In this document: positions 48,938 through 63,991 of the stretch, piece after piece | Position numbering within the stretch: the stretch's first letter is position 1 | How the letters are laid out: each line of letters opens with the position of its first letter | Virus record (IMG/VR): IMGVR_UViG_2718218135_000001 | Span: 49,251 to 113,250 of that record | DNA: 64,000 bases | Reading direction: 5' to 3' (one strand) | From: a virus | Lineage: Duplodnaviria; Heunggongvirae; Uroviricota; Caudoviricetes | Translations under genes and position numbers: made by a program | The notes under the pieces: generated by a model | Databases searched by the model: none | Told to the model about the DNA's origin: nothing | What the model saw: the letters and a program-made list of their open reading frames with translations, nothing else

Positions 48938-51900
48938 ATGAAGGCTCTGATGGTCAGAACTGACTTCTCCCTGGGAGAGTCAGCTCTAAAAGCAGAAAAC
49001 GCGGTGAAAATCGCGAGAGACGCTGGCTACACCGCTGTCATTTCCGCTGACAGCATGAACATTGCCAGTGTGATCCCCCTGCAGCGTGCCGCTGGCGACG
49101 ACATGGCGGTTATTTGTGGTGTTAAGCTGAATGTGGTCGACGATCCGACATACGAGCATCGCGCCCGCCTGGCGAAAGAGTCAGGAGGATGTATGGAATC
49201 ATTGGTGCGTGATCGAAGCTACTGCTTCACGGCACTGATAAAGAATGAGCAAGGTTATCGCGACGTGTGCGAACTGATGACCTTAGCCAACAAGCGCGAG
49301 CAATTCTACTTTGTTCCGCGTCTGGCACTTGACCAGCTGGCGGCCGCATATGCCAAAGGCAACATCATCCTGCTGACGTCCGACATTGGCAGTGTATTCC
49401 AGCGCCGGGACTTCGCAAAGATTATCGGGACGCTGGTGACAGCTGGAGGACGCGATAACTTCTACAGCGTGGTTTATCCGCACCCTACCCCATTCTACGA
49501 CCAGATTAACGTCCGGGCGATGAAAGTGGCGAGCGCACTGAAAATAGAGCCAGTGGCGTTCTATCCCGCTTATTACGAAGCGATCGACGACGCTGACATT
49601 AAAGACATTGCGCACATGGTTACGAACAACATCAAAATCGACCAGCCGCATCGTCTGCGCATCCCCCACCAGCGAGATAACGCTGTTAATGGTCGTCGCC
49701 ATCTCCTTGAAGCGCTGAAAGCCTTCTCCGTTCGCATGGGCGTACCGGTAACAGCTGCAATGGTCTCAACAACGCAGGACACCATTATTGAAGCCTGCAC
49801 ATGGCGCTGGCATGAACTGCCACCAGCACTGCCCAAGATGGCAGACGACGAGCCTGCAACGCTGATGAAGCTGGCTGTCGCGGGGCTACGCAAGCGTCTA
49901 ACTACTAAAGAGTTTGGCTACACACCACCGGCTTCTGAGCACCGAGTGTATGTTGAGCGACTGAAGTACGAAATGGACACACTGACCCGTCTGGGCTTCT
50001 GTGGCTACTTCCTGATGGTACGCGATCTGATGAATCACAGCCGTGAAACAGGAATACCGGTTGGGCCAGGTCGTGGTTCCTCTGCCGGTTCTCTGGTGGC
50101 GTGGTGCATAGGCATAACCAACGTCGATCCTATCCGTCACGGTCTTCTGTTTGAGCGTTTCATCAACCCTGAACGTCTTGACTTACCGGATGCGGATCTG
50201 GACTTCAGCCAGGCACGTCGTCATGAGGTGATCGAGTATCTGAATGAACACTATGGCGAAGATTACGTTGCCGGTATTCCAAACTTCACCTATCTGGGCG
50301 CCGCTTCTGCGCTGCGAGACACTGCGCGTATTTACGGTGTCGACGCTGCGGATATGTCGGTATCCAAAGAGTTCAAGAATCTGGAAGACGATAGCCTGTC
50401 TCTGGAAGAGCTGCGCGAGCAACTGGCCAGCCTGGACAAATACGCCACGAAAAACCCGGAAGCGTTCAAAGCGGCGTGTAAGCTGCAAAGCCTGATGCGT
50501 GGTTTTGGTCGTCACGCTGCGGGGATGATCGTCGCTGGCGTTCCACTGGTAGAGCGCACGCCCGTCGAGCTGCGTGGCAACGCTCGCTGTATTGCGTTCG
50601 ATAAACGTTACTGCGAGGCGATGGGGCTGATTAAGCTGGACGTTCTCGGTCTGGCAACGCTCGATCTGCTGGATAGCGCGAAACGCTACATCAAAGAGAG
50701 TACCGGGGAAGACATCAATCTCGATGCTATTCCACTGGACGATCGTAAGGTTCTGGATGGGTTCGCTGCAGGGTACACGCAGGGCGTATTCCAGCTGGAG
50801 TCCGGCCCCATGCGCAAGCTGCTTAAAGATCTGGGCGGTGGCATTGAGCCAATGAGCTTCAAAACCGTTGTCGCCACGACCGCACTCTTCCGACCTGGCC
50901 CGATCCAATCCGGCATGTTGGACGACTATGTCTCCGTGGCCAAAGGCTTCATGGCTCCACATTCAATTCATCCGCGTCTTGAGGAAGTCACCCGGGAGAC
51001 TAATGGTGTTTTGCTCTATCAGGAACAAATCATGCAAAGTTCCCGAGTACTTGCCGGGTTCTCTATGGCCGAAGCAGACGCTCTGCGTTCCGCTATCGGT
51101 AAAAAGAACATGGATAAGATGAAAGCGATCGGCAGCGATTTTGTAGAACGAGCACAAGCAGGCTGGGTGACACTGTCACTCAAAAATGGAGGTACTGTAG
51201 AGGTTCACAAACACGCAAAACTGGATTGCTCAGACGGTAAGCGTAGAAGCTACAGCGAGGCTATTAGTGACGGCATAGACTACGTGGAGATCGTCTCTGA
51301 ACAAGAAGGTCTCAGTAAGGAAAAAGCCCAAGAAATATGGGACGCCTTTGAGAAGTTCGGTGGATATGCCTTCAACAAATCACACAGTGTTGCTTATTCT
51401 TTAATCAGCTATCAGTCTATGTGGTTAAAGACACATTACCCTGCTGAGTTCTTCGCTGCTGCGCTCACCATTCTGGGCGAGGATAAGCACCAGGGGCTGG
51501 TTAAGGATGCGCTGACCTATGGCATTCGCGTATTGCCACCAGACGTTAACGTGTCATCTAACCGAATTGAGATCCGCACGCTGGAAGACGGCAGTCAGGT
51601 TCTGTATGCACCATTCTCTGCTGTGAAAGGCTGCTCTGAGAATGGTTGCCAGGCCATCATGAGAGCGCGTGAGAAAGTTGGCGGCAAATTCGAGTCACTT
51701 GAGCAATTTGAGGAAGCGGTCGAGAAGCGTGCATGTAACAGCCGGGTACGCGAATCACTGCAAAAAGTCGGTGCGTTCGCATCGATTGAGTCTGGCAGTC
51801 TGCCAGCGACAGATCCGGAACGGCTGCGCGACCAGGCAGAGTTGATGGGTAATCTGGTGATCGACGCTGTAAAAGCCTCTCGACCGTTCGAGATGAACCC

Positions 51901-52444
51901 TAAGCGCTCTGCTGAAGTAAATGTACTGATGACGCGCATGGCGGCCGAAATGGGGCTGGGAGACGATCTAATCCGTCCAAGCATTGGTATTAAGCCAAAA
52001 ATCATGGTTATTCTGGACAACGCGAACGGCAATGATGGGCGTACCGGCTACTTCATGGAGAACGGTTACGACGACTTTAAGGCGAAGTTGCTTACTGCAG
52101 GCGATCTGCGTATGGGCGATCTCTACGTCACCGGCGTGTGCAAAAAGGTGAAGGACAAAGAGAAGGACTACACCAAAGACGAGATCGGTCAGTTCACCGA
52201 CTTTATGCGTGAAGAGATCAATCTGGTGCGTCCGACCTATGTACTGACGTGTGGCAGCCGGGCGACGTCGCTCTTCAACAACAAGAGCAAACCATCCGAC
52301 CTGGTTGGACGCAAAGAGTATCTGCCGGAGCTGGATGCGACCGTTTTCTACGGATTTAACCCGAATATCCTTTACTTCCGACCGGAAGAAGGAGAGCGAC
52401 TGGAGGCCATTCTGACTGATATTGCGGAGACGATAAATAAGTAA
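48938..52444 (+). CDS. DNA polymerase III alpha-type (DnaE-like) replicative polymerase
   Basis: GYFLMVRDLMNHSRETGIPVGPGRGSSAGSLVAWCIGITNVDPIRHGLLFERFINPERLDLPDADLDF matches DnaE palm signature; 1168 aa. Confidence 0.8.
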   Translation: MKALMVRTDFSLGESALKAENAVKIARDAGYTAVISADSMNIASVIPLQRAAGDDMAVICGVKLNVVDDPTYEHRARLAKESGGCMESLVRDRSYCFTALIKNEQGYRDVCELMTLANKREQFYFVPRLALDQLAAAYAKGNIILLTSDIGSVFQRRDFAKIIGTLVTAGGRDNFYSVVYPHPTPFYDQINVRAMKVASALKIEPVAFYPAYYEAIDDADIKDIAHMVTNNIKIDQPHRLRIPHQRDNAVNGRRHLLEALKAFSVRMGVPVTAAMVSTTQDTIIEACTWRWHELPPALPKMADDEPATLMKLAVAGLRKRLTTKEFGYTPPASEHRVYVERLKYEMDTLTRLGFCGYFLMVRDLMNHSRETGIPVGPGRGSSAGSLVAWCIGITNVDPIRHGLLFERFINPERLDLPDADLDFSQARRHEVIEYLNEHYGEDYVAGIPNFTYLGAASALRDTARIYGVDAADMSVSKEFKNLEDDSLSLEELREQLASLDKYATKNPEAFKAACKLQSLMRGFGRHAAGMIVAGVPLVERTPVELRGNARCIAFDKRYCEAMGLIKLDVLGLATLDLLDSAKRYIKESTGEDINLDAIPLDDRKVLDGFAAGYTQGVFQLESGPMRKLLKDLGGGIEPMSFKTVVATTALFRPGPIQSGMLDDYVSVAKGFMAPHSIHPRLEEVTRETNGVLLYQEQIMQSSRVLAGFSMAEADALRSAIGKKNMDKMKAIGSDFVERAQAGWVTLSLKNGGTVEVHKHAKLDCSDGKRRSYSEAISDGIDYVEIVSEQEGLSKEKAQEIWDAFEKFGGYAFNKSHSVAYSLISYQSMWLKTHYPAEFFAAALTILGEDKHQGLVKDALTYGIRVLPPDVNVSSNRIEIRTLEDGSQVLYAPFSAVKGCSENGCQAIMRAREKVGGKFESLEQFEEAVEKRACNSRVRESLQKVGAFASIESGSLPATDPERLRDQAELMGNLVIDAVKASRPFEMNPKRSAEVNVLMTRMAAEMGLGDDLIRPSIGIKPKIMVILDNANGNDGRTGYFMENGYDDFKAKLLTAGDLRMGDLYVTGVCKKVKDKEKDYTKDEIGQFTDFMREEINLVRPTYVLTCGSRATSLFNNKSKPSDLVGRKEYLPELDATVFYGFNPNILYFRPEEGERLEAILTDIAETINK

Positions 52445-53693: not shown

Positions 53694-54710
53694 ATGTCTA
53701 AGTCATTACTTGATCTGCTTAACAAGACCCGTGGCGATATTGCTTCCAAACGTGGCAATAACATTGATTTGACCCGTCTGAAAGATGGCAATAACTATCT
53801 GCGCATTTTTCCGAACAAGGACGATCCGAATGGCGTGTTCTTCCAGACTTTCGGTATGCACTACGTTAAGCATCAGAATGAGGAAGGCAAAGATGTAACC
53901 ACCGCCTATATCTGCGAACAACACACCCACGGCCACGCTTGCCAGCTGTGTGAGATGGTTATGGAAGGTCGCGCTCGCTTTAAGGGCAACAAAGCGATGG
54001 AAGAGCGCATTAATAGTATGCGTGCTACGCCGCGTTATCTGGTCAACGGTGTTCTGTCTGCGCGTGAAGACTTTGCGGACGCAGAGAAATGCCAGCTGAT
54101 TGAGCTGCCGTCTACGGTCTTCGACGATATCTGCAAAGTGATGTCCGAAGATATTGCGGACGATATTGGCAACCCACTGAGCAAAGAAGAAGGCTATGCG
54201 TTCCTGATTAAACGCACCGGTTCCGGTCGTGACACCAAGTACGACGTATCCCCGAAACGTAAAGTCTACAAAGGCGACATTCCTGAGAAGCTCTGGACTA
54301 CCCAACACGATCTGATCGCATATGCGAACCAGGCTGACGAAACTCGTTTGCTGTCCACGACTCGCACTATGGGTCGTCTGATTGGTATTGCGGCTCCGGC
54401 AGCAACTATGTCCTCACCAGCCATTTCTTCCGCTGCAAAATCAGCCGCAGCTGGACTGCCAGGCTTTGGCTCTATCACTGGTCATACGGAAGGCGCAGCT
54501 GCTGTCGCTACAGCACATACTCCGGCGCCAGAGTCCACCAGCCTGGTTGATGAAGAGATCCTGCGTGCCGCTGAAGCTGAGTTCAAACCGGAAGAAGCGA
54601 AAGCTCCGGAAGCCACCGAAGCCGCAAGTGCTTCAGCATCTGCTGCCGCTGCATCTGTACCAGCTGATGAAGGTCTCGATGACCTGCTGGCTGAACTGGA
54701 CGCTCTGTAA
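53694..54710 (+). CDS. single-stranded DNA-binding protein (T4 gp32-like architecture)
   Basis: His/Cys zinc motif EQHTHGHACQLC, Ala/Ser-rich linker and acidic C-terminal tail DEGLDDLLAELDAL; AAGGAG RBS. Confidence 0.5.
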   Translation: MSKSLLDLLNKTRGDIASKRGNNIDLTRLKDGNNYLRIFPNKDDPNGVFFQTFGMHYVKHQNEEGKDVTTAYICEQHTHGHACQLCEMVMEGRARFKGNKAMEERINSMRATPRYLVNGVLSAREDFADAEKCQLIELPSTVFDDICKVMSEDIADDIGNPLSKEEGYAFLIKRTGSGRDTKYDVSPKRKVYKGDIPEKLWTTQHDLIAYANQADETRLLSTTRTMGRLIGIAAPAATMSSPAISSAAKSAAAGLPGFGSITGHTEGAAAVATAHTPAPESTSLVDEEILRAAEAEFKPEEAKAPEATEAASASASAAAASVPADEGLDDLLAELDAL

Positions 54711-54726
54711 TCCCATAACGTAACCA

Positions 54727-54755
54727 GTAAGGCGTCTGCGGACGCCTTACTTTTT
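54727..54755 (+). terminator. rho-independent terminator
   Basis: GTAAGGCGTC-TGCG-GACGCCTTAC followed by TTTTT. Confidence 0.65.
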
Positions 54756-54770
54756 GGAAGGAGTGTACCG

Positions 54771-55715
54771 GTGAATTATCTCTTTGTGGACGGTAACAGC
54801 CTGGGCTATTACCACCAGCAATCCGACAAATTACACAACGGCGAGATGGAAGTTCAGGCGGTTTTTGGCTTCGTGAAGAACGTTCGTCGTTACGCCTCAA
54901 TTCTCCATGCCCGGCCAATGATCTTGTGGGATGGATTCAGCGACAAACGTCGCGACTTCTACCCGGAGTACAAAGCGAACCGCGACGACGACCCGGACAT
55001 GAAGAAGATGAAAGAAGGCTTTGCCATCCAGAAGCCGTACATCTTGAAAATGATGACCGCGCTGGGCGTTAACCAACTCATTGCAAAGGACGCAGAAGCG
55101 GATGACCTGGCTGGAATGCTGGTCTCTCGTCTGGCTCCGCAGCCGACCGTCGATCACATCTACCTGCTGACTGGCGATGGCGACTGGCTCCAGCTTGTTC
55201 GTGAGAACGTGAGCTGGATAAGCCTGCGTGAAGACGCCAAGCACAAGCAGGTGAACTTCGAACAGTTCGCAGAGCTGACCGGTCTGCCGACCCCACGCGC
55301 GTTTCTGGAAGCGAAAGCGTTGCAGGGCGATAACTCGGACAACATCAAAGGCGTAGGTGGCATTGGTGATGGTGGCGCGAAAGAGCTGCTTCATGAATGG
55401 GGAAGCGTGGCCGCAATGGTACGCGGCATTAACGACGGTTCCATTGTCATCAACAAAGGTCGCTATAAGACGGCATTCAACAAGCTGGCAAAGAACGCCT
55501 TCAACGAGAAGACGGGCTGCCGGATGCTCGAAGCCTTTAAGCGCAACATGATGCTGATGAACCTTATCGACACAAAATTCCCACCCAGCGAAATCGAGTC
55601 GATTAAAGGCGCACGCGATATGAGCGCCTTTGAACAGATGTGTTACGAGCTGAATTTCCGTTCGTTTCTGGAAGATCTGGAAGTGTTTGTTCTGCCGTTT
55701 GAGAGGTATTGCTGA
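54771..55715 (+). CDS. 5'-3' exonuclease / flap endonuclease (FEN, PolI N-terminal-like)
   Basis: N-terminal YLFVDGNSLGYYHQ and H3TH-like KGVGGIGDGGAKELL; GTG start with GGAAGGAG RBS. Confidence 0.7.
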   Translation: MNYLFVDGNSLGYYHQQSDKLHNGEMEVQAVFGFVKNVRRYASILHARPMILWDGFSDKRRDFYPEYKANRDDDPDMKKMKEGFAIQKPYILKMMTALGVNQLIAKDAEADDLAGMLVSRLAPQPTVDHIYLLTGDGDWLQLVRENVSWISLREDAKHKQVNFEQFAELTGLPTPRAFLEAKALQGDNSDNIKGVGGIGDGGAKELLHEWGSVAAMVRGINDGSIVINKGRYKTAFNKLAKNAFNEKTGCRMLEAFKRNMMLMNLIDTKFPPSEIESIKGARDMSAFEQMCYELNFRSFLEDLEVFVLPFERYC

Positions 55716-55981
55716 TGCTGAAATCCATCATTAATGGCGGGGCAACTACGCCAACCATGCTGGCAAAGGAGATTGTTTTCTGCCACGGCGAGCACGCTGT
55801 GGTAGCGCTGCCGAACATTCTGGGCGCTGCTGGCATTTCTGCTACTGAGCGTGAGTTCGCGCTGGTCAGTGAGCAGGTCGTGAAGATCATCGCTCGCGTC
55901 GCCAAACACCTGAACCACGACGCAATCAAGTTTGACGAAGCCGCTGCTTCGAAGCGAATCAACGAATCAAAAGGAGCCTAA
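55715..55981 (+). CDS. hypothetical small protein
   Basis: ATG overlapping FEN stop; 88 aa. Confidence 0.3.
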   Translation: MLKSIINGGATTPTMLAKEIVFCHGEHAVVALPNILGAAGISATEREFALVSEQVVKIIARVAKHLNHDAIKFDEAAASKRINESKGA

Positions 55982-55983
55982 TC

Positions 55984-58323
55984 ATGGCAAAAGGCAAATC
56001 CGCACTGGCACTGGCGCTGAAAAAGAAAATCGGCAGCAATGACGAGATTCAGAAGGTCTCCCACTGGATTGACTCCGGTTTCCCTCCACTGAACAAAGCC
56101 ATTTCCGGACGTTACGACGGTGGTTTTCCGTGTGGGCGTATCGTTGAAGTCTTCGGGCCACCAAGCGCGGGGAAATGTGTTACCGCAGACACCATGCTGC
56201 TGACGGAGCGTGGAATTGTAACAGTGAAAGAACTGTTTGAGATTGAGGGGCACAAAGCAACATGCACTACTCGCGATGTAGAGCATAACGTTGGACTCAT
56301 CAATGAAAATGGCGTGATAGAGAAGACCTCACACCTGACATGGAACAACCGTCGCAAATTCAAGCGCATTAAGCTGGCATCAGGGGGTTACATCGAGGCT
56401 ACGTTCCGTCACCCAATTCGTGTGGTTGACGACTTAGGCAATATCGTCTGGCGGTATGCTGAAAAAATCAGTGTAGGCGACACGATTCCTTCAATGGTTG
56501 GCACACATCAATTCGGCGATCAGCACTTGGATGCCAATATCGCAAAACTGATGGGCTATTTAATTGCTGACGGATACGTGGCCTCTGAAAATTCTGTGCA
56601 TTTTTCTAACACAGATCCATTCATCAAGGATGAGTACTACCGCCTCATTTCGCTGGTATCAGACAAGATGCCAGTTACGAGAAAACATAACGGCTCGGAA
56701 GACCATGTGCTGTTTAGCAAAGAGGTGCGTTCGCTGCTTTTTAAAGAATATGGTCTGGAGTATGAGAAAGCTGCTGGCAAGCAGGTTCCGTTGAGTGTGC
56801 GTCGCGCCAATAGCGAGGCTCAAATTGCATTCCTTCGCGGCTACTTTGAGCTGGAATGCCACGTCAATGATGGTCGCTGCATTGAGGTTGTGAGCGCGAG
56901 TGGGCTGCTGCTACAGCAAATTCGCCTCATGCTCCTGAATCTGGGGATTACGTCAACTATCTCTGAAAAACACGTCGCAGGTTATAAAAACATATATTAC
57001 CGGCTGTCATTCAGTGGCTCTAACTACGACCTTTTCCTGTCAACGATTGGGTTCGAGTCTCCGGCTCGTTTAGCAGTGGCAACCAAACGGGACATTAGTT
57101 TTGACCGCACTTATTTAGGCTACGTTCCGCACATCAGCGGCTTAGTGAAATCACTCTACGAGTCACTCACCAAGACCTCTCGTAAAGACTACGTTCTGGT
57201 AGATCACGTTATTGGCCGCGGCGATCGTGTCGGAATAGACAAACTGCGAGAAATCTATGTCTCCTTCATTGGCAGAAAGAATCGTTTTAACGAGCATCTG
57301 TTTGCACAACTGGCAGCGGTAATTGACTCTAACTTGTTCTACGACGAAGTCGTGGCTATTGAGGAAGGTGAAGCACCAACGTTCGACGTAGCGATGCCGG
57401 AAACACACTCTTTCTGGTCTAACGGGATTATCAGCCACAACACATTCCTCGCGACGGCTGCGATGGTGTCAGCACAAAAACAGGATGGTCTGGCCGTATT
57501 CCTTGACCACGAAAACAGTTTCGACGTTGGTCTGGCGGTAGCGAACGGACTGAACGCCGACGAAGACGACGGTCAGTGGGTCTACAAACAGCCGGATACC
57601 TTCGAAGACTCCGTAGAGCTGATCGGCACAATCCTCAAGCTGGTGCGCGACGAAGAGCTTATTCCGGAAACAGCCCCTATCTGCATCGTAGCCGACTCTC
57701 TGGCGTCGATGGTTCCGAACTCGAAGGCTGAGAAGTTCGACAAGATGGCAGAAGGCACTGCGAAGGACAAAGATCAGCTGAACATGAACGACAACACGGC
57801 GCTGGCGCGCGCGACAAGTGCGAACTTCCCTACTCTGGCGCTTTGGGCGCGTAAGTACAACGCGTGCATCATCTTCTTGAACCAGGTGCGTACCAAAATT
57901 GGTGTGATGTTTGGCGATCCGACTACGTCTCCGGGTGGCGACTCTCCGAAGTTCTACGCGTCGGTGCGCATCCGTCTGGGTGCATCCGTCATGAAGGATG
58001 GCAAAGAGAAGATCGGACAGGACGTTGGCGCCGAGTGCATTAAAAACAAAGTCGCGCCTCCGTTTGGCAAATGCTCATGGAAATTCTACTTCGACCCGAC
58101 TCGCGGGCTGGACGTCGTCGAGTCTCTGGTTGAATACATGCTGGAGGAAGGATACCTGCCCAAGAGCGCCAGCGGGCGTGTGGAAATTGGCGAGAAGAAA
58201 TACACCAAATCACAGATCGTCGAGATGTACCGGGAGAAGCCATTAGCTGAAATCATTGCTGCGTTACAGGCAATAGATGACAGGCGCGAGAAGACATCAC
58301 CGACAGATGAATTAGAAGATTAA
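55984..58323 (+). CDS. RecA-family recombinase (UvsX/Sak4-like) precursor containing an intein
   Basis: Exteins give GPPSAGK|T Walker A, FLDHENSFD, IVADSLASM, PGGDSPKFYASVRIRL RecA-like motifs; AAAAGGAG RBS. Confidence 0.75.
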   Translation: MAKGKSALALALKKKIGSNDEIQKVSHWIDSGFPPLNKAISGRYDGGFPCGRIVEVFGPPSAGKCVTADTMLLTERGIVTVKELFEIEGHKATCTTRDVEHNVGLINENGVIEKTSHLTWNNRRKFKRIKLASGGYIEATFRHPIRVVDDLGNIVWRYAEKISVGDTIPSMVGTHQFGDQHLDANIAKLMGYLIADGYVASENSVHFSNTDPFIKDEYYRLISLVSDKMPVTRKHNGSEDHVLFSKEVRSLLFKEYGLEYEKAAGKQVPLSVRRANSEAQIAFLRGYFELECHVNDGRCIEVVSASGLLLQQIRLMLLNLGITSTISEKHVAGYKNIYYRLSFSGSNYDLFLSTIGFESPARLAVATKRDISFDRTYLGYVPHISGLVKSLYESLTKTSRKDYVLVDHVIGRGDRVGIDKLREIYVSFIGRKNRFNEHLFAQLAAVIDSNLFYDEVVAIEEGEAPTFDVAMPETHSFWSNGIISHNTFLATAAMVSAQKQDGLAVFLDHENSFDVGLAVANGLNADEDDGQWVYKQPDTFEDSVELIGTILKLVRDEELIPETAPICIVADSLASMVPNSKAEKFDKMAEGTAKDKDQLNMNDNTALARATSANFPTLALWARKYNACIIFLNQVRTKIGVMFGDPTTSPGGDSPKFYASVRIRLGASVMKDGKEKIGQDVGAECIKNKVAPPFGKCSWKFYFDPTRGLDVVESLVEYMLEEGYLPKSASGRVEIGEKKYTKSQIVEMYREKPLAEIIAALQAIDDRREKTSPTDELED
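56176..57441 (+). other. intein with LAGLIDADG homing-endonuclease domain, inserted in RecA P-loop
   Basis: Begins with Cys (CVTADTMLL), ends SHN followed by +1 Thr; LAGLIDADG-like blocks LMGYLIADGYV and FLRGYFELECH; length 1266 nt = 422 codons in frame. Confidence 0.7.
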
Positions 58324-58328
58324 TTTTC

Positions 58329-58353
58329 AGGCGTCCGAATGGACGCCTTTATA
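58329..58353 (+). terminator. rho-independent terminator after recombinase gene
   Basis: AGGCGTCC-GAAT-GGACGCCT followed by TTTAT. Confidence 0.6.
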
Positions 58354-58617: not shown

Positions 58618-58809
58618 ATGAAGAAAGGTTTACTGGCAGTGATCGTGGCTGCTGTTTGCACAATGGGTCTTACAGGCTGCGATCGTGTTGAGCCTGGGTA
58701 CGTTGGCATCAAAGTAAACAAATTGGGTGAAGACAAAGGTATCGGTGAAGTTGTCGGCGTTGGCCGTCAGTGGACTGGTCTGAATACCGAGCTGTACACC
58801 TCTCTTTAA
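58618..58809 (+). CDS. small lipoprotein
   Basis: Signal peptide with lipobox LTGC; 63 aa; translationally coupled to upstream small gene. Confidence 0.4.
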   Translation: MKKGLLAVIVAAVCTMGLTGCDRVEPGYVGIKVNKLGEDKGIGEVVGVGRQWTGLNTELYTSL

Positions 58810-58880
58810 GTCATCTTAAATGACTCTGAGGTGTCTGTTAAACCTGTGGCGATTCAGTCTATTAAACCTGTGGCGATTCA
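58797..58880. repeat. inverted copy of IS3-family left terminus (60 bp, 1 mismatch vs 37160-37219) plus 24-bp tandem duplication of the terminal segment
   Basis: CACCTCTCTTTAAGTCATCTTAAATGACTCTGAGGTGTCTGTTAAACCTGTGGCGATTCA is reverse complement of 37160-37219; GTCTATTAAACCTGTGGCGATTCA repeated directly at 58857-58880. Confidence 0.6.
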
Positions 58881-59041
58881 CTTTATGGTGTCATAAACTT
58901 AAATCTAGCGCCGGGTAGAACAAGTTAATCGAACGATGTAGCGGCCATTTAGGCGTTACAGAAAGAACAGAATTTTAAATTTATAGTGAAGCCGTTGCAG
59001 CAACTTTGTGGGGTGCAACCAACACTGAACAGGAAAAGAAA

Positions 59042-61474
59042 ATGGATCATAGTGTACATAACAAGCTCATCTCATTTATATGGAACATTGCCGACGACTG
59101 TTTACGTGATGTGTACGTTCGCGGTAAGTACCGCGATGTGATTTTACCTATGGTGGTATTACGACGTTTAGATACGTTACTTGAACCCACCAAAGAAGCC
59201 GTGCTTGAAGAGGTCAAGTTCCAAAAAGAAGAGATGCAAGCCACGGAGCTTGATGATGAACCATTGAAGGCGGCTAGTGGTTATGTTTTTTACAATACAT
59301 CTAAATGGACCCTGAAATCCCTGTTCAACACCGCAACGAATAACCAACAGATATTACTCGCCAACTTTGAAGAGTACCTGCTTGGCTTTAGCGATAATGT
59401 TAAAGAAATCATTGAATGCTTTAACCTCAAGTCGCAAATTCGTCACATGGCCTCAAAGCAAGTCCTTCTTGATGTCGTCGAAAAGTTTGTTTCCCCTTAC
59501 ATCAACTTAACTCATGAAACGATCGAAGACCCAGATGGCAACAAGATGCCAGCCCTTACTAACCTGGGTATGGGGTACGTGTTCGAAGAGTTGATCCGTA
59601 AGTTCAACGAGGAGAATAACGAAGAAGCCGGTGAGCACTTTACACCTAGGGAAGTGATTGAGCTGATGACACACTTGGTTTTTGACCCAGTGAAAGAGCA
59701 GCTACCATTGACCATGACCGTTTACGACCCTGCGTGTGGTAGCGGTGGTATGCTCACTGAATCTCAAAACTTCATTGAAGAGAAATACCCGAACGACAGC
59801 CGAGATATTTACCTTTACGGCAAAGAGATCAATGACGAGACCTACGCGATTTGTAAATCGGACATGATGATCAAAGGTAACAACCCTGAGAACATCAAGG
59901 TAGGCTCAACCTTGTCTACCGACGAGTTTGCGGCTTCTCGCTTTGACTTTATGTTGTCTAACCCGCCATACGGTAAGAGTTGGGCGTCTGAACAGAAGTA
60001 CATTAAAGACGGCAGTGATGTGATTGACCCGCGTTTTAAGGTTAGCCTGAAAGACTATTGGGGAAATCTCGAAGTGGTGGATGCCACGCCACGTTCGAGT
60101 GATGGCCAGCTGCTTTTCTTAATGGAGATGGTCAACAAGATGAAAGATCCGAGCGTAAGTCCATTAGGCAGCCGGATTGCCTCTGTTCATAACGGCTCAT
60201 CGCTCTTTACCGGCGATGCGGGCGGTGGCGAAAGTAATATTCGTCGCTTCATCATTGAAAACGACATGCTAGATGCCATCGTTCAGTTACCTAATAACCT
60301 GTTCTATAACACTGGCATTACCACTTACATTTGGGTGTTGAACAACAATAAACCTGAGGCGCGTAAAGGTAAGGTGCAATTAATTGATGCCAGCTTGCTC
60401 TACCGTAAGTTGCGCAAGAACTTAGGTAACAAAAACTGCGAATTTGCGCCTGAGCACATCACGGAAATTACCGATACTTACCTCGCGTGTAAGGATGTTG
60501 AAAGAGCACTGGATGCAAACAATGATCCTGTTGGCATCGCCAGTAAGGTATTCAGCAATGACGATTTTGGCTACTACAAAGTCACTATAGAGCGCCCAGA
60601 TCGCCGCAAAGCCAAGTTTACTCAAGACGCAATAGCCCCACTGCGTTTTGATAAGCAACTTAGTGAAGTGATGGAGTACGTGTACGCAGAGCACGGCGAA
60701 CGTGTTTACGAAAAAACTGGCTACGGGTCAGATCAGAAAAAGAGCTTCTTAAAATCCATCGAGAAAGACATTCTTTCTTGGTGTGAAGATAACGACATCA
60801 GTCTCAATGCTAAGGCTAAGGCCAAACTGCTTGATGTGAAACACTGGCTGGCGCTAAAAGCATTGCTTGAAACTGCACAAACGCTGATGGCTGACATCGG
60901 TAGCATTGAATTTGATGACTTCAATAGCTTTAAAACCCAAGTTGATAAATCGCTAAAAGCCCATGCTATTAAGCTTTCAGCACCTGAGAAAAATGCCATT
61001 CTTCACGCGGTGAGCTGGTATGACGAAACCGCCAAGAAAGTGGTTAAAAAGGTAGTTAAATTAACGGGTGATAAATTAAACGACCTGCTGGAGCGCTATG
61101 AGTGTGAAGTCGCTGACTTGCCAGATTTTGGTTATTACCCCGTTCCTTCAGCAGAAGGCGGTAAAAAAGGCGAGTATATCACTTACGAGACCAATTCAGA
61201 CCTGCGAGATACAGAATCTGTTCCATTAAAGCAAAGCATTTACCAGTACTTCCTAGATGAAGTGAAGCCTCATGTCGATGAAGCATGGATAAACCTAGAT
61301 ACGGTAAAAATTGGCTATGAAATCAGCTTCAATAAGTATTTCTACCGTTATAAACCGCTGCGTAGTTTAGAAGAGGTCGCAACCGACATCATCAACCTAG
61401 AACAAAAAGCCGAAGGTCTCATTGCGCAGATATTGGGTGTTAAAGTGGCGGAAGTAAAAAAGGTTCAGGGGTAA
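59042..61474 (+). CDS. type I restriction-modification methyltransferase subunit (HsdM-like, long form)
   Basis: N6-adenine MTase motif IV NPPYG and motif I-like DPACGSGGML; followed by HsdS; ATG at 59042 preferred. Confidence 0.7.
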   Translation: MDHSVHNKLISFIWNIADDCLRDVYVRGKYRDVILPMVVLRRLDTLLEPTKEAVLEEVKFQKEEMQATELDDEPLKAASGYVFYNTSKWTLKSLFNTATNNQQILLANFEEYLLGFSDNVKEIIECFNLKSQIRHMASKQVLLDVVEKFVSPYINLTHETIEDPDGNKMPALTNLGMGYVFEELIRKFNEENNEEAGEHFTPREVIELMTHLVFDPVKEQLPLTMTVYDPACGSGGMLTESQNFIEEKYPNDSRDIYLYGKEINDETYAICKSDMMIKGNNPENIKVGSTLSTDEFAASRFDFMLSNPPYGKSWASEQKYIKDGSDVIDPRFKVSLKDYWGNLEVVDATPRSSDGQLLFLMEMVNKMKDPSVSPLGSRIASVHNGSSLFTGDAGGGESNIRRFIIENDMLDAIVQLPNNLFYNTGITTYIWVLNNNKPEARKGKVQLIDASLLYRKLRKNLGNKNCEFAPEHITEITDTYLACKDVERALDANNDPVGIASKVFSNDDFGYYKVTIERPDRRKAKFTQDAIAPLRFDKQLSEVMEYVYAEHGERVYEKTGYGSDQKKSFLKSIEKDILSWCEDNDISLNAKAKAKLLDVKHWLALKALLETAQTLMADIGSIEFDDFNSFKTQVDKSLKAHAIKLSAPEKNAILHAVSWYDETAKKVVKKVVKLTGDKLNDLLERYECEVADLPDFGYYPVPSAEGGKKGEYITYETNSDLRDTESVPLKQSIYQYFLDEVKPHVDEAWINLDTVKIGYEISFNKYFYRYKPLRSLEEVATDIINLEQKAEGLIAQILGVKVAEVKKVQG

Positions 61475-61480
61475 GTCGTT

Positions 61481-62818
61481 ATGATGAAGATTTCTGAAAT
61501 GCCGAAATATGACGATTATGTAGATTCTGGGGTTGAATGGTTGGGACGAGTTCCTTCTCATTGGCAGATTATAAGATTGAAAAATACGATCAATGGATGC
61601 GTCAATGGCTTATGGGGGGCTGATCCAAATGGTAAAGATGAATTGGTTGTAGTAAGAGTTTCGGATTTTGATGAGCAAAAATTGAATGTTTCTGATGAAA
61701 AACTTACTTATCGTTCCATACCTGAAAACGAACGGAAAAGTCGCCTATTGAAATTTGGTGATTTATTGATAGAAAAATCAGGTGGAGGCGATAAAACTTT
61801 AGTTGGTAGAGTTGTTTTGTTTGATAAAAGCTATACGGCAGTCACGTCAAACTTCGTCGCAAAAATGACTCCAAAAAATTGGGTAAACCACAGTTTTTTA
61901 AAGTATGTATTTTTTAGTTTATATAGTCGAGGTGTCAATTACGTATCTATTAAGCAAACAACAGGTATCCAAAACCTTGATGCGAATTCGTATTTAAATG
62001 AAGTTTTCTGTTTTCCTGATGAATTTGTTCAGGCAGAGGTCGCCAACTTTCTTGACAAGAAAACCGCTCTAATCGACGAAGCGATTTCGATCAAAGAGCA
62101 GCAAATTAGCCTGCTGAAAGAGCGTAAGCAGATCATCATCCAACAGGCGGTGACCCAAGGGCTTGACCCGAATGTGCCAATGAAAGACTCCGGTATGGAT
62201 TGGATTGGGAAGATTCCGCAACACTGGAAATTAAAGCCTAATAAGTGCCTTTTCAAGTTAAAAAAATCATTGGTAGGAAAAAGATCTGGAGACTATGAGC
62301 TTCTATCTCTAACCCTAAAAGGGATAATTAAACGAGATATGGATAACCCAGAGGGGAAATTTCCAGCTGAGTTTAATACGTACCAAGAAGTTAGTGTCGG
62401 TGACTTTGTATTCTGTTTATTCGATGTAGAGGAAACCCCTAGAACTGTTGGTCTTTCTAAATTTAACGGAATGATTACTGGGGCCTATACGGTTTTTGAA
62501 CTTGATGAGAGTGTTAGTAAGGAATTCCTTTATTATTTTTATTTAAATTTAGACTCAAGAAAAATGATGAGACCATTGTATAAGGGTCTAAGAAATACCA
62601 TCTCAAAAGAGACTTTTTTGAGCTTTAAGTCATTTATACCACCTTTGAAAGAGCAAGAAGAGATCGTTGATTTTATTGAATATGAGGTTAATAAGATAGA
62701 TCTCACTATAGATGGGATATCCGAACAAATTGATAAAATAAAGGAATATAAGTCTTGTCTAATAAATGGTTCGGTCACAGGTAAAATTAAAGTTACGTCA
62801 GAAATGGCTGAGCGATAG
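61481..62818 (+). CDS. type I restriction-modification specificity subunit (HsdS)
   Basis: Two target-recognition domains separated by conserved central helical spacer; AT-rich codon usage. Confidence 0.7.
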   Translation: MMKISEMPKYDDYVDSGVEWLGRVPSHWQIIRLKNTINGCVNGLWGADPNGKDELVVVRVSDFDEQKLNVSDEKLTYRSIPENERKSRLLKFGDLLIEKSGGGDKTLVGRVVLFDKSYTAVTSNFVAKMTPKNWVNHSFLKYVFFSLYSRGVNYVSIKQTTGIQNLDANSYLNEVFCFPDEFVQAEVANFLDKKTALIDEAISIKEQQISLLKERKQIIIQQAVTQGLDPNVPMKDSGMDWIGKIPQHWKLKPNKCLFKLKKSLVGKRSGDYELLSLTLKGIIKRDMDNPEGKFPAEFNTYQEVSVGDFVFCLFDVEETPRTVGLSKFNGMITGAYTVFELDESVSKEFLYYFYLNLDSRKMMRPLYKGLRNTISKETFLSFKSFIPPLKEQEEIVDFIEYEVNKIDLTIDGISEQIDKIKEYKSCLINGSVTGKIKVTSEMAER

Positions 62819-62827
62819 GACGCGAGT

Positions 62828-63991
62828 ATGTTCACGGTAAATCATCAGACCAATAGGATTAGTCCGGTTAAGACGAAGAAGTTCAGTGAGTTGGGCTTTA
62901 CTGAGCGCAAGCATCTTCAGGAGTGGTTGGCACACGAACCTTCCGCACTCGGTGAAGAGTTGTTGATTATTCAAAAAGAGTTCGATGGCTTTGATGACAC
63001 CCGTGAACGCTTAGATTTACTGGCACTGGATAAAGATGGCAACTTGGTCATTATTGAAAACAAGCTGGACGACAGTGGCCGCGATGTGGTGTGGCAGGCG
63101 CTTAAATATGCCTCTTACTGTGCCAGTTTAACCAAAGCGCAAATAGTTGAAATTTATCAGCAGTACTTAGACCGCTATGAGCCTGTCACAGGAGAGGTAG
63201 ACCTGTTAAATGCCCCTGCAAGTGCCTCAGCTAGAATATGTGAGTTTTTGGATGCGCCCGATCTGGATGAGTTAAAGCTCAACCTGGGTAACAGCCAGCG
63301 CATCATGTTAGTTGCGGCAAACTTTCGCAAAGAAGTGACCAGCACCGCGCTGTGGTTATTGGGTCAAGGAATTAGCATTGCCTGCTTCAAAATCACGCCT
63401 TATTCACTGGGTGAACAGCTACTGATTAATATTGACCAGATCATCCCAACGCCGGAAGCGAAAGAGTTGATGATCGGCATTAATGCCAAGGAAGCGGAAG
63501 AAAAAACCACCGAAGTGGTACTAAAAAACCGCCATACGGTGCGGCGCGAATACTGGGAGCGTGCCTTAGAGGCGTTTCAGAAAAGCGCTTGCCAACTCTA
63601 TAACAACATTAGCCCAAGCAATGATCATTGGTTATCAGCAGGCTCAGGGTTAAGTGGGTGTCCGTATAACCTGATATTTCTGCAAAAAGAGCTTCGAGTA
63701 GAGCTTTGTATCAGCCGTGGGGTTACCGAAGAGAATAAATACCTTTTTGACTTGTTGAGTCAGTCCAAACAGGACATTGAACATACTTTTGGTGCAGAAC
63801 TTGAGTGGATGAGGCTGGATGAGAAGAAATCTTGCCGTATTCAGTTTTCGACCAAAGCTGATGGGTTTAACAAAGATACGTGGCCCCAAGCGGTTGCGTG
63901 GCACTTAGAGCAGATGACAAAGTTAGAAAAAGCCTTAAAAGGACCGCTGCAAAAAGCGGCTGAGGCAATGAAACAGAAGAATTTTGATTAA
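62828..63991 (+). CDS. PD-(D/E)xK-like nuclease-domain protein associated with RM locus (DUF4268/NucS-like, tentative)
   Basis: N-terminal RERLDLLALDKDGNLVIIENKLDD fits D...ExK nuclease signature; immediately downstream of hsdS. Confidence 0.35.
   Translation: MFTVNHQTNRISPVKTKKFSELGFTERKHLQEWLAHEPSALGEELLIIQKEFDGFDDTRERLDLLALDKDGNLVIIENKLDDSGRDVVWQALKYASYCASLTKAQIVEIYQQYLDRYEPVTGEVDLLNAPASASARICEFLDAPDLDELKLNLGNSQRIMLVAANFRKEVTSTALWLLGQGISIACFKITPYSLGEQLLINIDQIIPTPEAKELMIGINAKEAEEKTTEVVLKNRHTVRREYWERALEAFQKSACQLYNNISPSNDHWLSAGSGLSGCPYNLIFLQKELRVELCISRGVTEENKYLFDLLSQSKQDIEHTFGAELEWMRLDEKKSCRIQFSTKADGFNKDTWPQAVAWHLEQMTKLEKALKGPLQKAAEAMKQKNFD

Follow-up and report, generated by a model that had tools for sequence, protein, structure and literature searches.

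A putative class 1 intein with a LAGLIDADG homing endonuclease divides the P-loop of a UvsX-like recombinase in SSU5-type phage-plasmids

The stretch of DNA analysed here (the window) comprises 64,000 nucleotides of a Caudoviricetes record in IMG/VR (IMGVR_UViG_2718218135_000001, positions 49,251 to 113,250). A single uninterrupted reading frame on its plus strand (55984-58323; 779 codons plus stop) encodes the precursor of a RecA-family, UvsX-like recombinase whose ATP-binding loop is divided by an apparent intein. The exact precursor protein is present in NCBI, e.g. as APL92956.1, and an AGGAG ribosome-binding site is located 8 nt 5' of the ATG. All features described below are on the plus strand. 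The N-extein (55984-56175, amino acids (aa) 1-64) terminates in GPPSAGK (56155-56175), the initial segment of the Walker A motif. An insert of 422 codons follows (56176-57441; 1266 nt, precursor aa 65-486). The C-extein (57442-58323, aa 487-779) begins with the +1 Thr which completes Walker A. By alignment to E. coli RecA it contains the catalytic Glu in LDHENSFD (57502-57525), Walker B as PICIVADS (57676-57699) and loop L2, NQVRTKIGVMFGDPTTSPGG (57880-57939). An initial annotation of this DNA, made from the letters alone, had placed a 422-codon intein in the P-loop, and its borders proved exact to the base. The insert starts with TGT (Cys65, 56176-56178) and ends with CAC AAC (His485-Asn486, 57436-57441); ACA (Thr487, 57442-57444) comes next. 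When position 56175 is joined to 57442 a protein of 357 aa results in which Walker A reads GPPSAGKT. As the initial annotation had anticipated, this is a contiguous RecA-like protein. It aligns without a gap to the product of phage SSU5 and likewise, over GPESSGKT and the Walker B and L2 regions that follow, to E. coli RecA (aligned part aa 28-271). The insertion is equivalent to one between Lys72 and Thr73 of the E. coli protein.

The interrupted protein has the core of the RecA family, i.e. Walker A and B, the catalytic Glu and loops L1 and L2. The Pfam RecA model (PF00154) matched the precursor in two pieces flanking the insert (126.9 bits, cut-off 27; E-value (E) 1.3e-36). The spliced sequence matched PHROG 97 (phrog_97, 'UvsX-like recombinase') with an E of 2.7e-91. 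It scored 156.1 bits against TIGR02012, the equivalog model of bacterial RecA, which has a cut-off of 325.3. Because of the PHROG 97 match and the score below the TIGR02012 cut-off, the protein is classified, on sequence criteria, as a phage-type RecA-family recombinase and not as an orthologue of cellular RecA. This agrees with the assignment to a phage-type element in the initial annotation.

The insert carries a complete set of intein motifs. Block A, CVTADTMLLTERG (56176-56214), provides the Cys1 nucleophile which is kept in all relatives. Block B, GGYIEATFRHPIRV (56383-56424), contains TxxH within EATFRHP (Thr76 and His79 in intein numbering). Block F, PTFDVAMPETHSFW (57376-57417), has its Asp and His, and block G, NGIISHN (57421-57441), the penultimate His and the terminal Asn, with Thr next. 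Absence of the conserved blocks A, B, F and G had been named as an observation that would speak against an intein; all four are present. Between the splicing blocks lies an endonuclease domain with the two LAGLIDADG-like motifs noticed earlier. Block C (motif 1), LMGYLIADGYV (56548-56580), has its acidic Asp, and block E (motif 2), FLRGYFELECHV (56830-56865), has an acidic Glu opposite the Asp of PI-PkoII. KQVPLSV (56779-56799) presumably represents endonuclease block D. Block H, LLQQIRLMLLNLGI (56908-56949), is the most conserved stretch among relatives; L251, L253, L254, N255 and G257 are invariant or nearly so.

The search of the insert with family models, suggested in the initial annotation, returned curated intein models above their cut-offs. 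These were Pfam Intein_splicing (PF14890; 44.1 bits, gathering score 35.8, E 2.5e-11), the NCBIfam N-terminal model TIGR01445 (35.3 bits, cut-off 24.5; aa 65-147) and the C-terminal model TIGR01443 (17.8 bits, cut-off 15.6; aa 466-487). The nested domain matched LAGLIDADG_3 (PF14528; 65.8 bits, cut-off 22.5, E 4e-18). The RecA, LAGLIDADG_3 and Intein_splicing matches are far beyond chance. An AlphaFold2 model of the intein, built from an 11-sequence alignment, had a mean predicted local distance difference test score of 81 and a predicted template modelling (TM) score of 0.85. The best Foldseek matches of this model were TliVMA (7QSS; E 1.4e-20, TM 0.71), PI-PfuI, PI-PkoII and PI-SceI, followed at lower rank by mini-inteins and Hedgehog Hint domains. 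Thus, the predicted structure has the Hint fold. An RNA-level intron was set aside in view of the unbroken frame and the full set of signatures at the protein level. Cys1, TxxH, blocks F and G with the terminal His-Asn, the +1 Thr, the curated models, the predicted Hint fold and the in-frame absence of the segment from related alleles together identify the insert as a predicted class 1 intein, situated between the Lys and the Thr of Walker A. The two motifs with their acidic residues, aligned to PI-PkoII, mark the nested domain as a predicted double-motif LAGLIDADG endonuclease. The G+C content of the intein is 47.9%, that of the exteins 53.6-54.1%; at third codon positions the values are 53% and 65%, respectively. 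The lower G+C fits a foreign origin of the intein relative to the recombinase gene.

The phage-plasmid to which the window belongs is of the SSU5 type and comes from E. coli. In megablast searches the full-length interrupted gene was present in three isolated phages, Cyrano, PhiR41_1 and vB_KpnS_p4727, whereas SSU5 itself and several Klebsiella phages matched in two pieces which bypass the insert. Such intein-less alleles in related phages had been proposed as a comparison and they do exist. The SSU5 product is 96% identical to the exteins of the window and reads GPPSAGK|TFLATAAM, with precisely the 422 residues absent. The same uninterrupted reading is found in pMT1 and in intein-less alleles of Klebsiella, Enterobacter and E. 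coli. In the plasmid collection the recombinase occurs in about 760 records and the intein in 247 of them, i.e. about a third. Among 5426 complete E. coli genomes the intein was present in 119, every copy was plasmid-borne and a chromosomal copy was not encountered. Therefore, the host gene belongs to SSU5-like phage-plasmids and not to the chromosome. The 90% identity cluster of the precursor in the protein collection has 1496 members; one of them is on a 2.7-Mb contig, perhaps through integration of a phage-plasmid into a chromosome or through an error of assembly. Partial matches to the intein in plasmids (46%, 30% and 19% coverage) were considered as natural mini-inteins and rejected. They are remnants truncated by insertion sequences (IS) in cointegrate plasmids. 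NZ_CP162200.1 and NZ_CP075717.1 retain only the 3' part of the intein and the C-extein, bordered by IS3, IS30 and IS110 elements, in larger IncF-type cointegrates; there they are annotated as 'recombinase' or 'hypothetical protein'.

Thirteen alleles were compared in detail. Seven carry the intein: the window, Cyrano, K. pneumoniae CP034055, E. hormaechei CP019891, E. coli pHH12_P1, E. albertii CP043243 and S. sonnei CP034066. Six are intein-less: SSU5, Y. pestis pMT1, K. pneumoniae CP016924, E. hormaechei CP133340, E. coli p09EL50 and E. coli pRHB17-C18_2. The exteins and 1.2 kb of upstream DNA fall into three lineages with a mutual identity of just 80-86%. The inteins of these three extein lineages are 97-99.9% identical, and the seventh copy, that of E. 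albertii, is 92% identical. The contrast is most pronounced between the window and K. pneumoniae CP034055. Their inteins share 99.9% of nucleotides without a single synonymous difference in 1266 nt, whereas the exteins are 83-85% identical with a synonymous divergence (dS) of about 1.2-1.4. Pairwise over six alleles (E. albertii excluded), dS was at most 0.086 in the intein and 1.1-2.1 in the exteins; dS and its ratio to non-synonymous divergence (dN/dS) were obtained by Nei-Gojobori counting. By this measure the intein is much younger than the genes which carry it. Near-zero dS in an intein whose exteins exceed a dS of 1 implies that the intein moved horizontally, and recently, between diverged alleles.

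The junctions carry a corresponding signature. In an alignment of the 13 alleles the presumed homing site, which the intein divides into two halves, lies within 56155-57465. All seven occupied alleles read GCG GGG AAA|ACA TTC. In all six empty alleles position +3 differs and the Thr codon is ACC or ACG. From the start of the N-extein to nt 350 of the C-extein, the occupied and the empty Klebsiella alleles are identical except at -7, -4 and +3. At these three positions the occupied allele has the bases of the window-type donor, and at -10 and +9 it has Klebsiella-type bases. In the S. sonnei allele the C-extein opens with about 45-50 nt of window-type sequence, beyond which the allele belongs to its own lineage. 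Accordingly, the intein has spread horizontally into the same site of diverged alleles together with converted flanks, and the flank changes are short, about 10 to 50 nt. Such short tracts at the insertion point fit the product expected of break-initiated homing with co-conversion; random crossovers would not be expected to cluster there.

Apart from the intein, the recombinase gene is itself mosaic. In its N-extein and up to nt ~126 of its C-extein, the intein-less gene of pRHB17-C18_2 (CP057685.1, 1501-2574) is of the HH12/O104 type; from there on it follows the window type, from which it differs once in about 750 nt. The lineages also diverge over the last ~25 codons, which end in ...KTSPTDELED, ...ESSPAETEEA or ...KDNPTESVEE. 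In E. albertii CP043243.1 (gene from locus position 1306) the intein frame is intact and the C-extein has a stop at aa 614 as well as indels. This gene is unannotated on a 62-kb plasmid and is a decaying copy.

We consider it very probable that the 779-aa precursor splices to an active recombinase and that the freed intein homes, via its LAGLIDADG endonuclease, into intein-less alleles. The comparison establishes the anatomy, the family membership, the exact absence of the segment in orthologues and a population pattern that requires recent horizontal transfer; splicing proficiency and endonuclease activity are inferred. As translated, the precursor would be unable to bind ATP normally since 422 aa part Lys64 from Thr487. 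According to established intein chemistry, Cys65 would undergo an N-S acyl shift and the hydroxyl of Thr487 would attack the thioester, yielding a branched intermediate by trans-esterification. Asn486 would then cyclise, aided by His485 and the histidines of blocks B and F, and release the intein. A final O-N shift would create the Lys-Thr peptide bond, restore GPPSAGKT and give an active recombinase of 357 aa. The excised intein most likely cuts the P-loop coding sequence of intein-less alleles when two phage-plasmids share a cell. Repair from the occupied allele would copy the intein in, plus a few flanking bases. This assigns roles other than those initially proposed: the occupied allele had been called a homing target, yet homing would be directed at intein-less alleles such as those of SSU5, pMT1 and many Klebsiella plasmids. 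An occupied allele, its site disrupted by the intein, serves as donor and is itself immune.

Possibly the intein splices while its endonuclease is inactive, and the patchy occurrence reflects vertical inheritance and ordinary recombination among mosaic phage-plasmids. The lineage switch at about nt 126 of the C-extein of pRHB17-C18_2 shows that the gene is mosaic independently of the intein, and distant members of the intein family have indeed lost the endonuclease by decay or deletion of the LAGLIDADG motifs. In the alleles examined here, however, both acidic residues of the LAGLIDADG motifs are intact in 7 of 7, and dN/dS of the endonuclease domain is 0.13-0.18, which is not neutral. The N-terminal splicing domain has a dN/dS of 0.04-0.15. 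Hence both domains appear constrained, the endonuclease by purifying selection. Further, in two independent backgrounds both borders of the exchanged tract lie no more than about 10-50 nt from the insertion point, as fits break-initiated repair rather than crossovers at random positions, and the intein has 0 synonymous differences where the extein dS exceeds 1. An intein that merely hitchhikes on general recombination is thus improbable.

Considerably less probable still is a splicing-defective relic in a recombinase which is tolerated as a pseudogene, dispensable owing to host RecA or other functions. The truncated C-extein of the E. albertii copy and the IS-truncated remnants speak in favour of it. 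Nevertheless, Cys1, TxxH, the Asp and His of block F, His-Asn and Thr+1 are kept in every allele, even at an intein dS of up to 0.30. Of the 7 sampled alleles, 6 keep the full-length frame of 779 or 780 aa, which the listed plasmid records annotate as one coding sequence, and the intein-carrying phages were isolated as viable phages. In the Cyrano, HH12 and S. sonnei alleles, which share an older intein lineage, dN/dS of the exteins is 0-0.03 after acquisition of the intein. Such low values suggest that the recombinase remains important once its gene has been invaded, which would mean that splicing works. That the 422 codons stem from an ordinary domain insertion or from the in-frame fusion of a free-standing homing endonuclease gene, as the name 'LAGLIDADG family homing endonuclease' on most RefSeq copies might imply, is next to impossible given Hint-domain models above cut-off on both sides of the endonuclease, a predicted fold which matches whole inteins including their splicing domains, and borders at exactly Cys...His-Asn|Thr whose joining restores the conserved P-loop.

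Several points weigh against the proposal of a splicing and homing intein. At the +1 position Thr is less nucleophilic than Cys or Ser would be; splicing could therefore be slow or conditional. The selection estimates are derived from small counts, 10-16 synonymous and 0-1.5 non-synonymous changes, and the detailed comparison is limited to 13 alleles. One sampled copy, that of E. albertii, has a broken C-extein. Homologous recombination of mosaic phage-plasmids could in principle move the intein without an endonuclease. Finally, a literature search retrieved no splicing or cleavage experiment on the E. coli RecA intein.

Besides selfish homing, the intein might act as a conditional switch. Given a slow Thr+1 nucleophile and a Cys1 located in the ATP-binding loop, splicing might be responsive to redox state, temperature, DNA damage or single-stranded DNA. 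The recombinase might then be inactive during plasmid-like carriage and be released at lytic induction. Conditional splicing has been shown for the Pyrococcus horikoshii (Pho) RadA intein, with which the present intein shares its insertion site, as well as for the RecA and DnaB inteins of mycobacteria. For the present intein we regard such a regulatory role as speculative and rather unlikely. Separately, and also as a speculative reading, the occupancy of about a third of the alleles suggests that the intein may at present be sweeping through phage-plasmids of clinical Enterobacteriaceae.

The Lys|Thr position of the P-loop is a textbook hot spot of intein insertion. All homologues of the intein that were found (28-45% identity) reside in RecA-family proteins at the same GxxxxGK|C...HN|T site. 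Some of the hosts are phage-type recombinases, whereas others possess the RecA C-terminal domain and are true RecA proteins of bacteria. The LAGLIDADG motifs are decayed or deleted in several of these relatives (P0011, P0015, P0017, P0018). This is the pattern expected of an old single-site intein family which would cycle through invasion, endonuclease decay and loss. The Pho RadA intein (c1; 4E2T/2LQM) is similarly located between the Walker A Lys and Thr of a RecA/RadA-family recombinase and has Thr at +1, yet its sequence similarity is marginal (E 0.1) and the Foldseek match (E 9e-5) covers the Hint domain only. Its splicing is described as controlled by its exteins (PMC4513877, PMC5790916), and independent invasions of the P-loop site are inferred by Topilina et al. 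(PMC4513877). PI-MtuI of M. tuberculosis RecA (site a) and the M. leprae RecA intein (site b) are alike in that RecA must splice for activity and in having a LAGLIDADG-type domain. They differ in being inserted at aa 252 and 206, at the monomer-monomer interface (PMC4513877), in chromosomally encoded actinobacterial RecA. Their similarity to the present intein is distant and confined to the fold (2imz/2in8; E about 2-4e-3).

The best structural matches, TliVMA (7QSS), PI-PfuI (1DQ3), PI-PkoII (2CW7) and PI-SceI (1VDE), with E from 1e-20 to 1e-8, share the Hint domain with a nested double-motif LAGLIDADG endonuclease, and the VMA inteins likewise sit in an ATPase. Their identity to the present intein is only 10-22%, and host proteins and organisms are different. 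Within phages, the mycobacteriophage terminase TerL1-a inteins, 'classic' P-loop inteins (Kelley et al. 2016, PMC5050341), are a known counterpart; there the host protein is a terminase and not a recombinase, the phages infect another phylum and the intein lineage is another one.

The intein is not new. A catalogue of 2015 already includes it, and public databases carry its annotation. Table 1 of Topilina et al. (2015, NAR, PMC4513877) lists a RecA intein c2 (65-486) in eight E. coli, two Enterobacter and one Salmonella strain. The intein of the window has the same P-loop insertion point between Lys and Thr, the same precursor coordinates, aa 65-486, and the same taxa, Enterobacteriaceae, and is almost certainly the published c2 element. 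In the available part of that paper c2 is listed under bacterial RecA from draft genomes and a phage or plasmid origin was not found mentioned. In contrast to that listing, the host gene is here assigned to SSU5-type phage-plasmids and scores below the TIGR02012 cut-off. Most RefSeq copies are named 'LAGLIDADG family homing endonuclease' and some 'intein-containing recombinase RecA'. The same 779-aa precursor is also filed as 'recombinase RecA', 'hint domain-containing protein' or 'hypothetical protein', and PHROGs v4 keeps it as a separate family of unknown function, phrog_9666. Our literature search yielded nothing that links the intein with SSU5, pHCM2, pMT1 or phage-plasmids; in a phage-plasmid review the only mention of inteins concerned engineered toxin-inteins.

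Catalogued in PMC4513877 and annotated in RefSeq, the intein adds little as a discovery. What is gained here, namely its phage-plasmid context and a signature of recent homing at the population level, is useful and leaves its category unchanged. Its value is rather that of a model, a full-length and apparently active intein plus homing endonuclease that is native to E. coli, Klebsiella and Enterobacter and resides on a transmissible phage-plasmid. Intein-less targets are abundant in the same species; thus homing, co-conversion and conditional splicing of a recombinase can be studied in the best genetic host. If the sweep is real, the intein would be a natural gene drive amenable to study in E. 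coli. In practical terms, the RefSeq name 'LAGLIDADG family homing endonuclease' masks a recombinase in many phage-plasmid annotations, and presence or absence of the intein is a simple marker of recombination between clinical phage-plasmids.

The neighbours of the recombinase gene constitute a phage recombination and replication module. Upstream on the same strand (53694-55981) are genes for a gp32-like single-stranded DNA-binding protein (53694-54710), a 5'-3' exonuclease (54771-55715) and a small conserved protein (55709-55981). Further upstream is an open reading frame (ORF) of 1168 aa (48938-52444). Its counterpart on a plasmid with a recombinase gene identical to that of the window is annotated as DNA polymerase III alpha subunit (dnaE), and the name was taken from there. 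Therefore, the phage-plasmid encodes its own replicative polymerase beside the genes for the single-stranded DNA-binding protein, exonuclease and recombinase. Downstream of the recombinase stop codon a terminator scan did not report the hairpin GGCGTCC-GAAT-GGACGCC (58331-58348), its T-tract being too short. The SPFH/band-7 gene which follows the recombinase gene, and which encodes 276 aa in SSU5, is reduced to an ORF of 63 aa (58618-58809) in the window. Then come type I restriction-modification genes, hsdM-like (59006-61474) and hsdS-like (61481-62818), and a further ORF (62828-63991); the names in 58618-63991 were taken from near-identical plasmids. This segment looks like the insertion of a defence system into the phage-plasmid backbone. 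NZ_CP122497, in which the recombinase is 100% identical, was considered as a match for the whole window and rejected since repA replaces the type I restriction-modification genes downstream; the closest overall relatives of the window are other E. coli plasmids. E. coli pRHB17-C18_2 has the same restriction-modification arrangement behind its recombinase gene.

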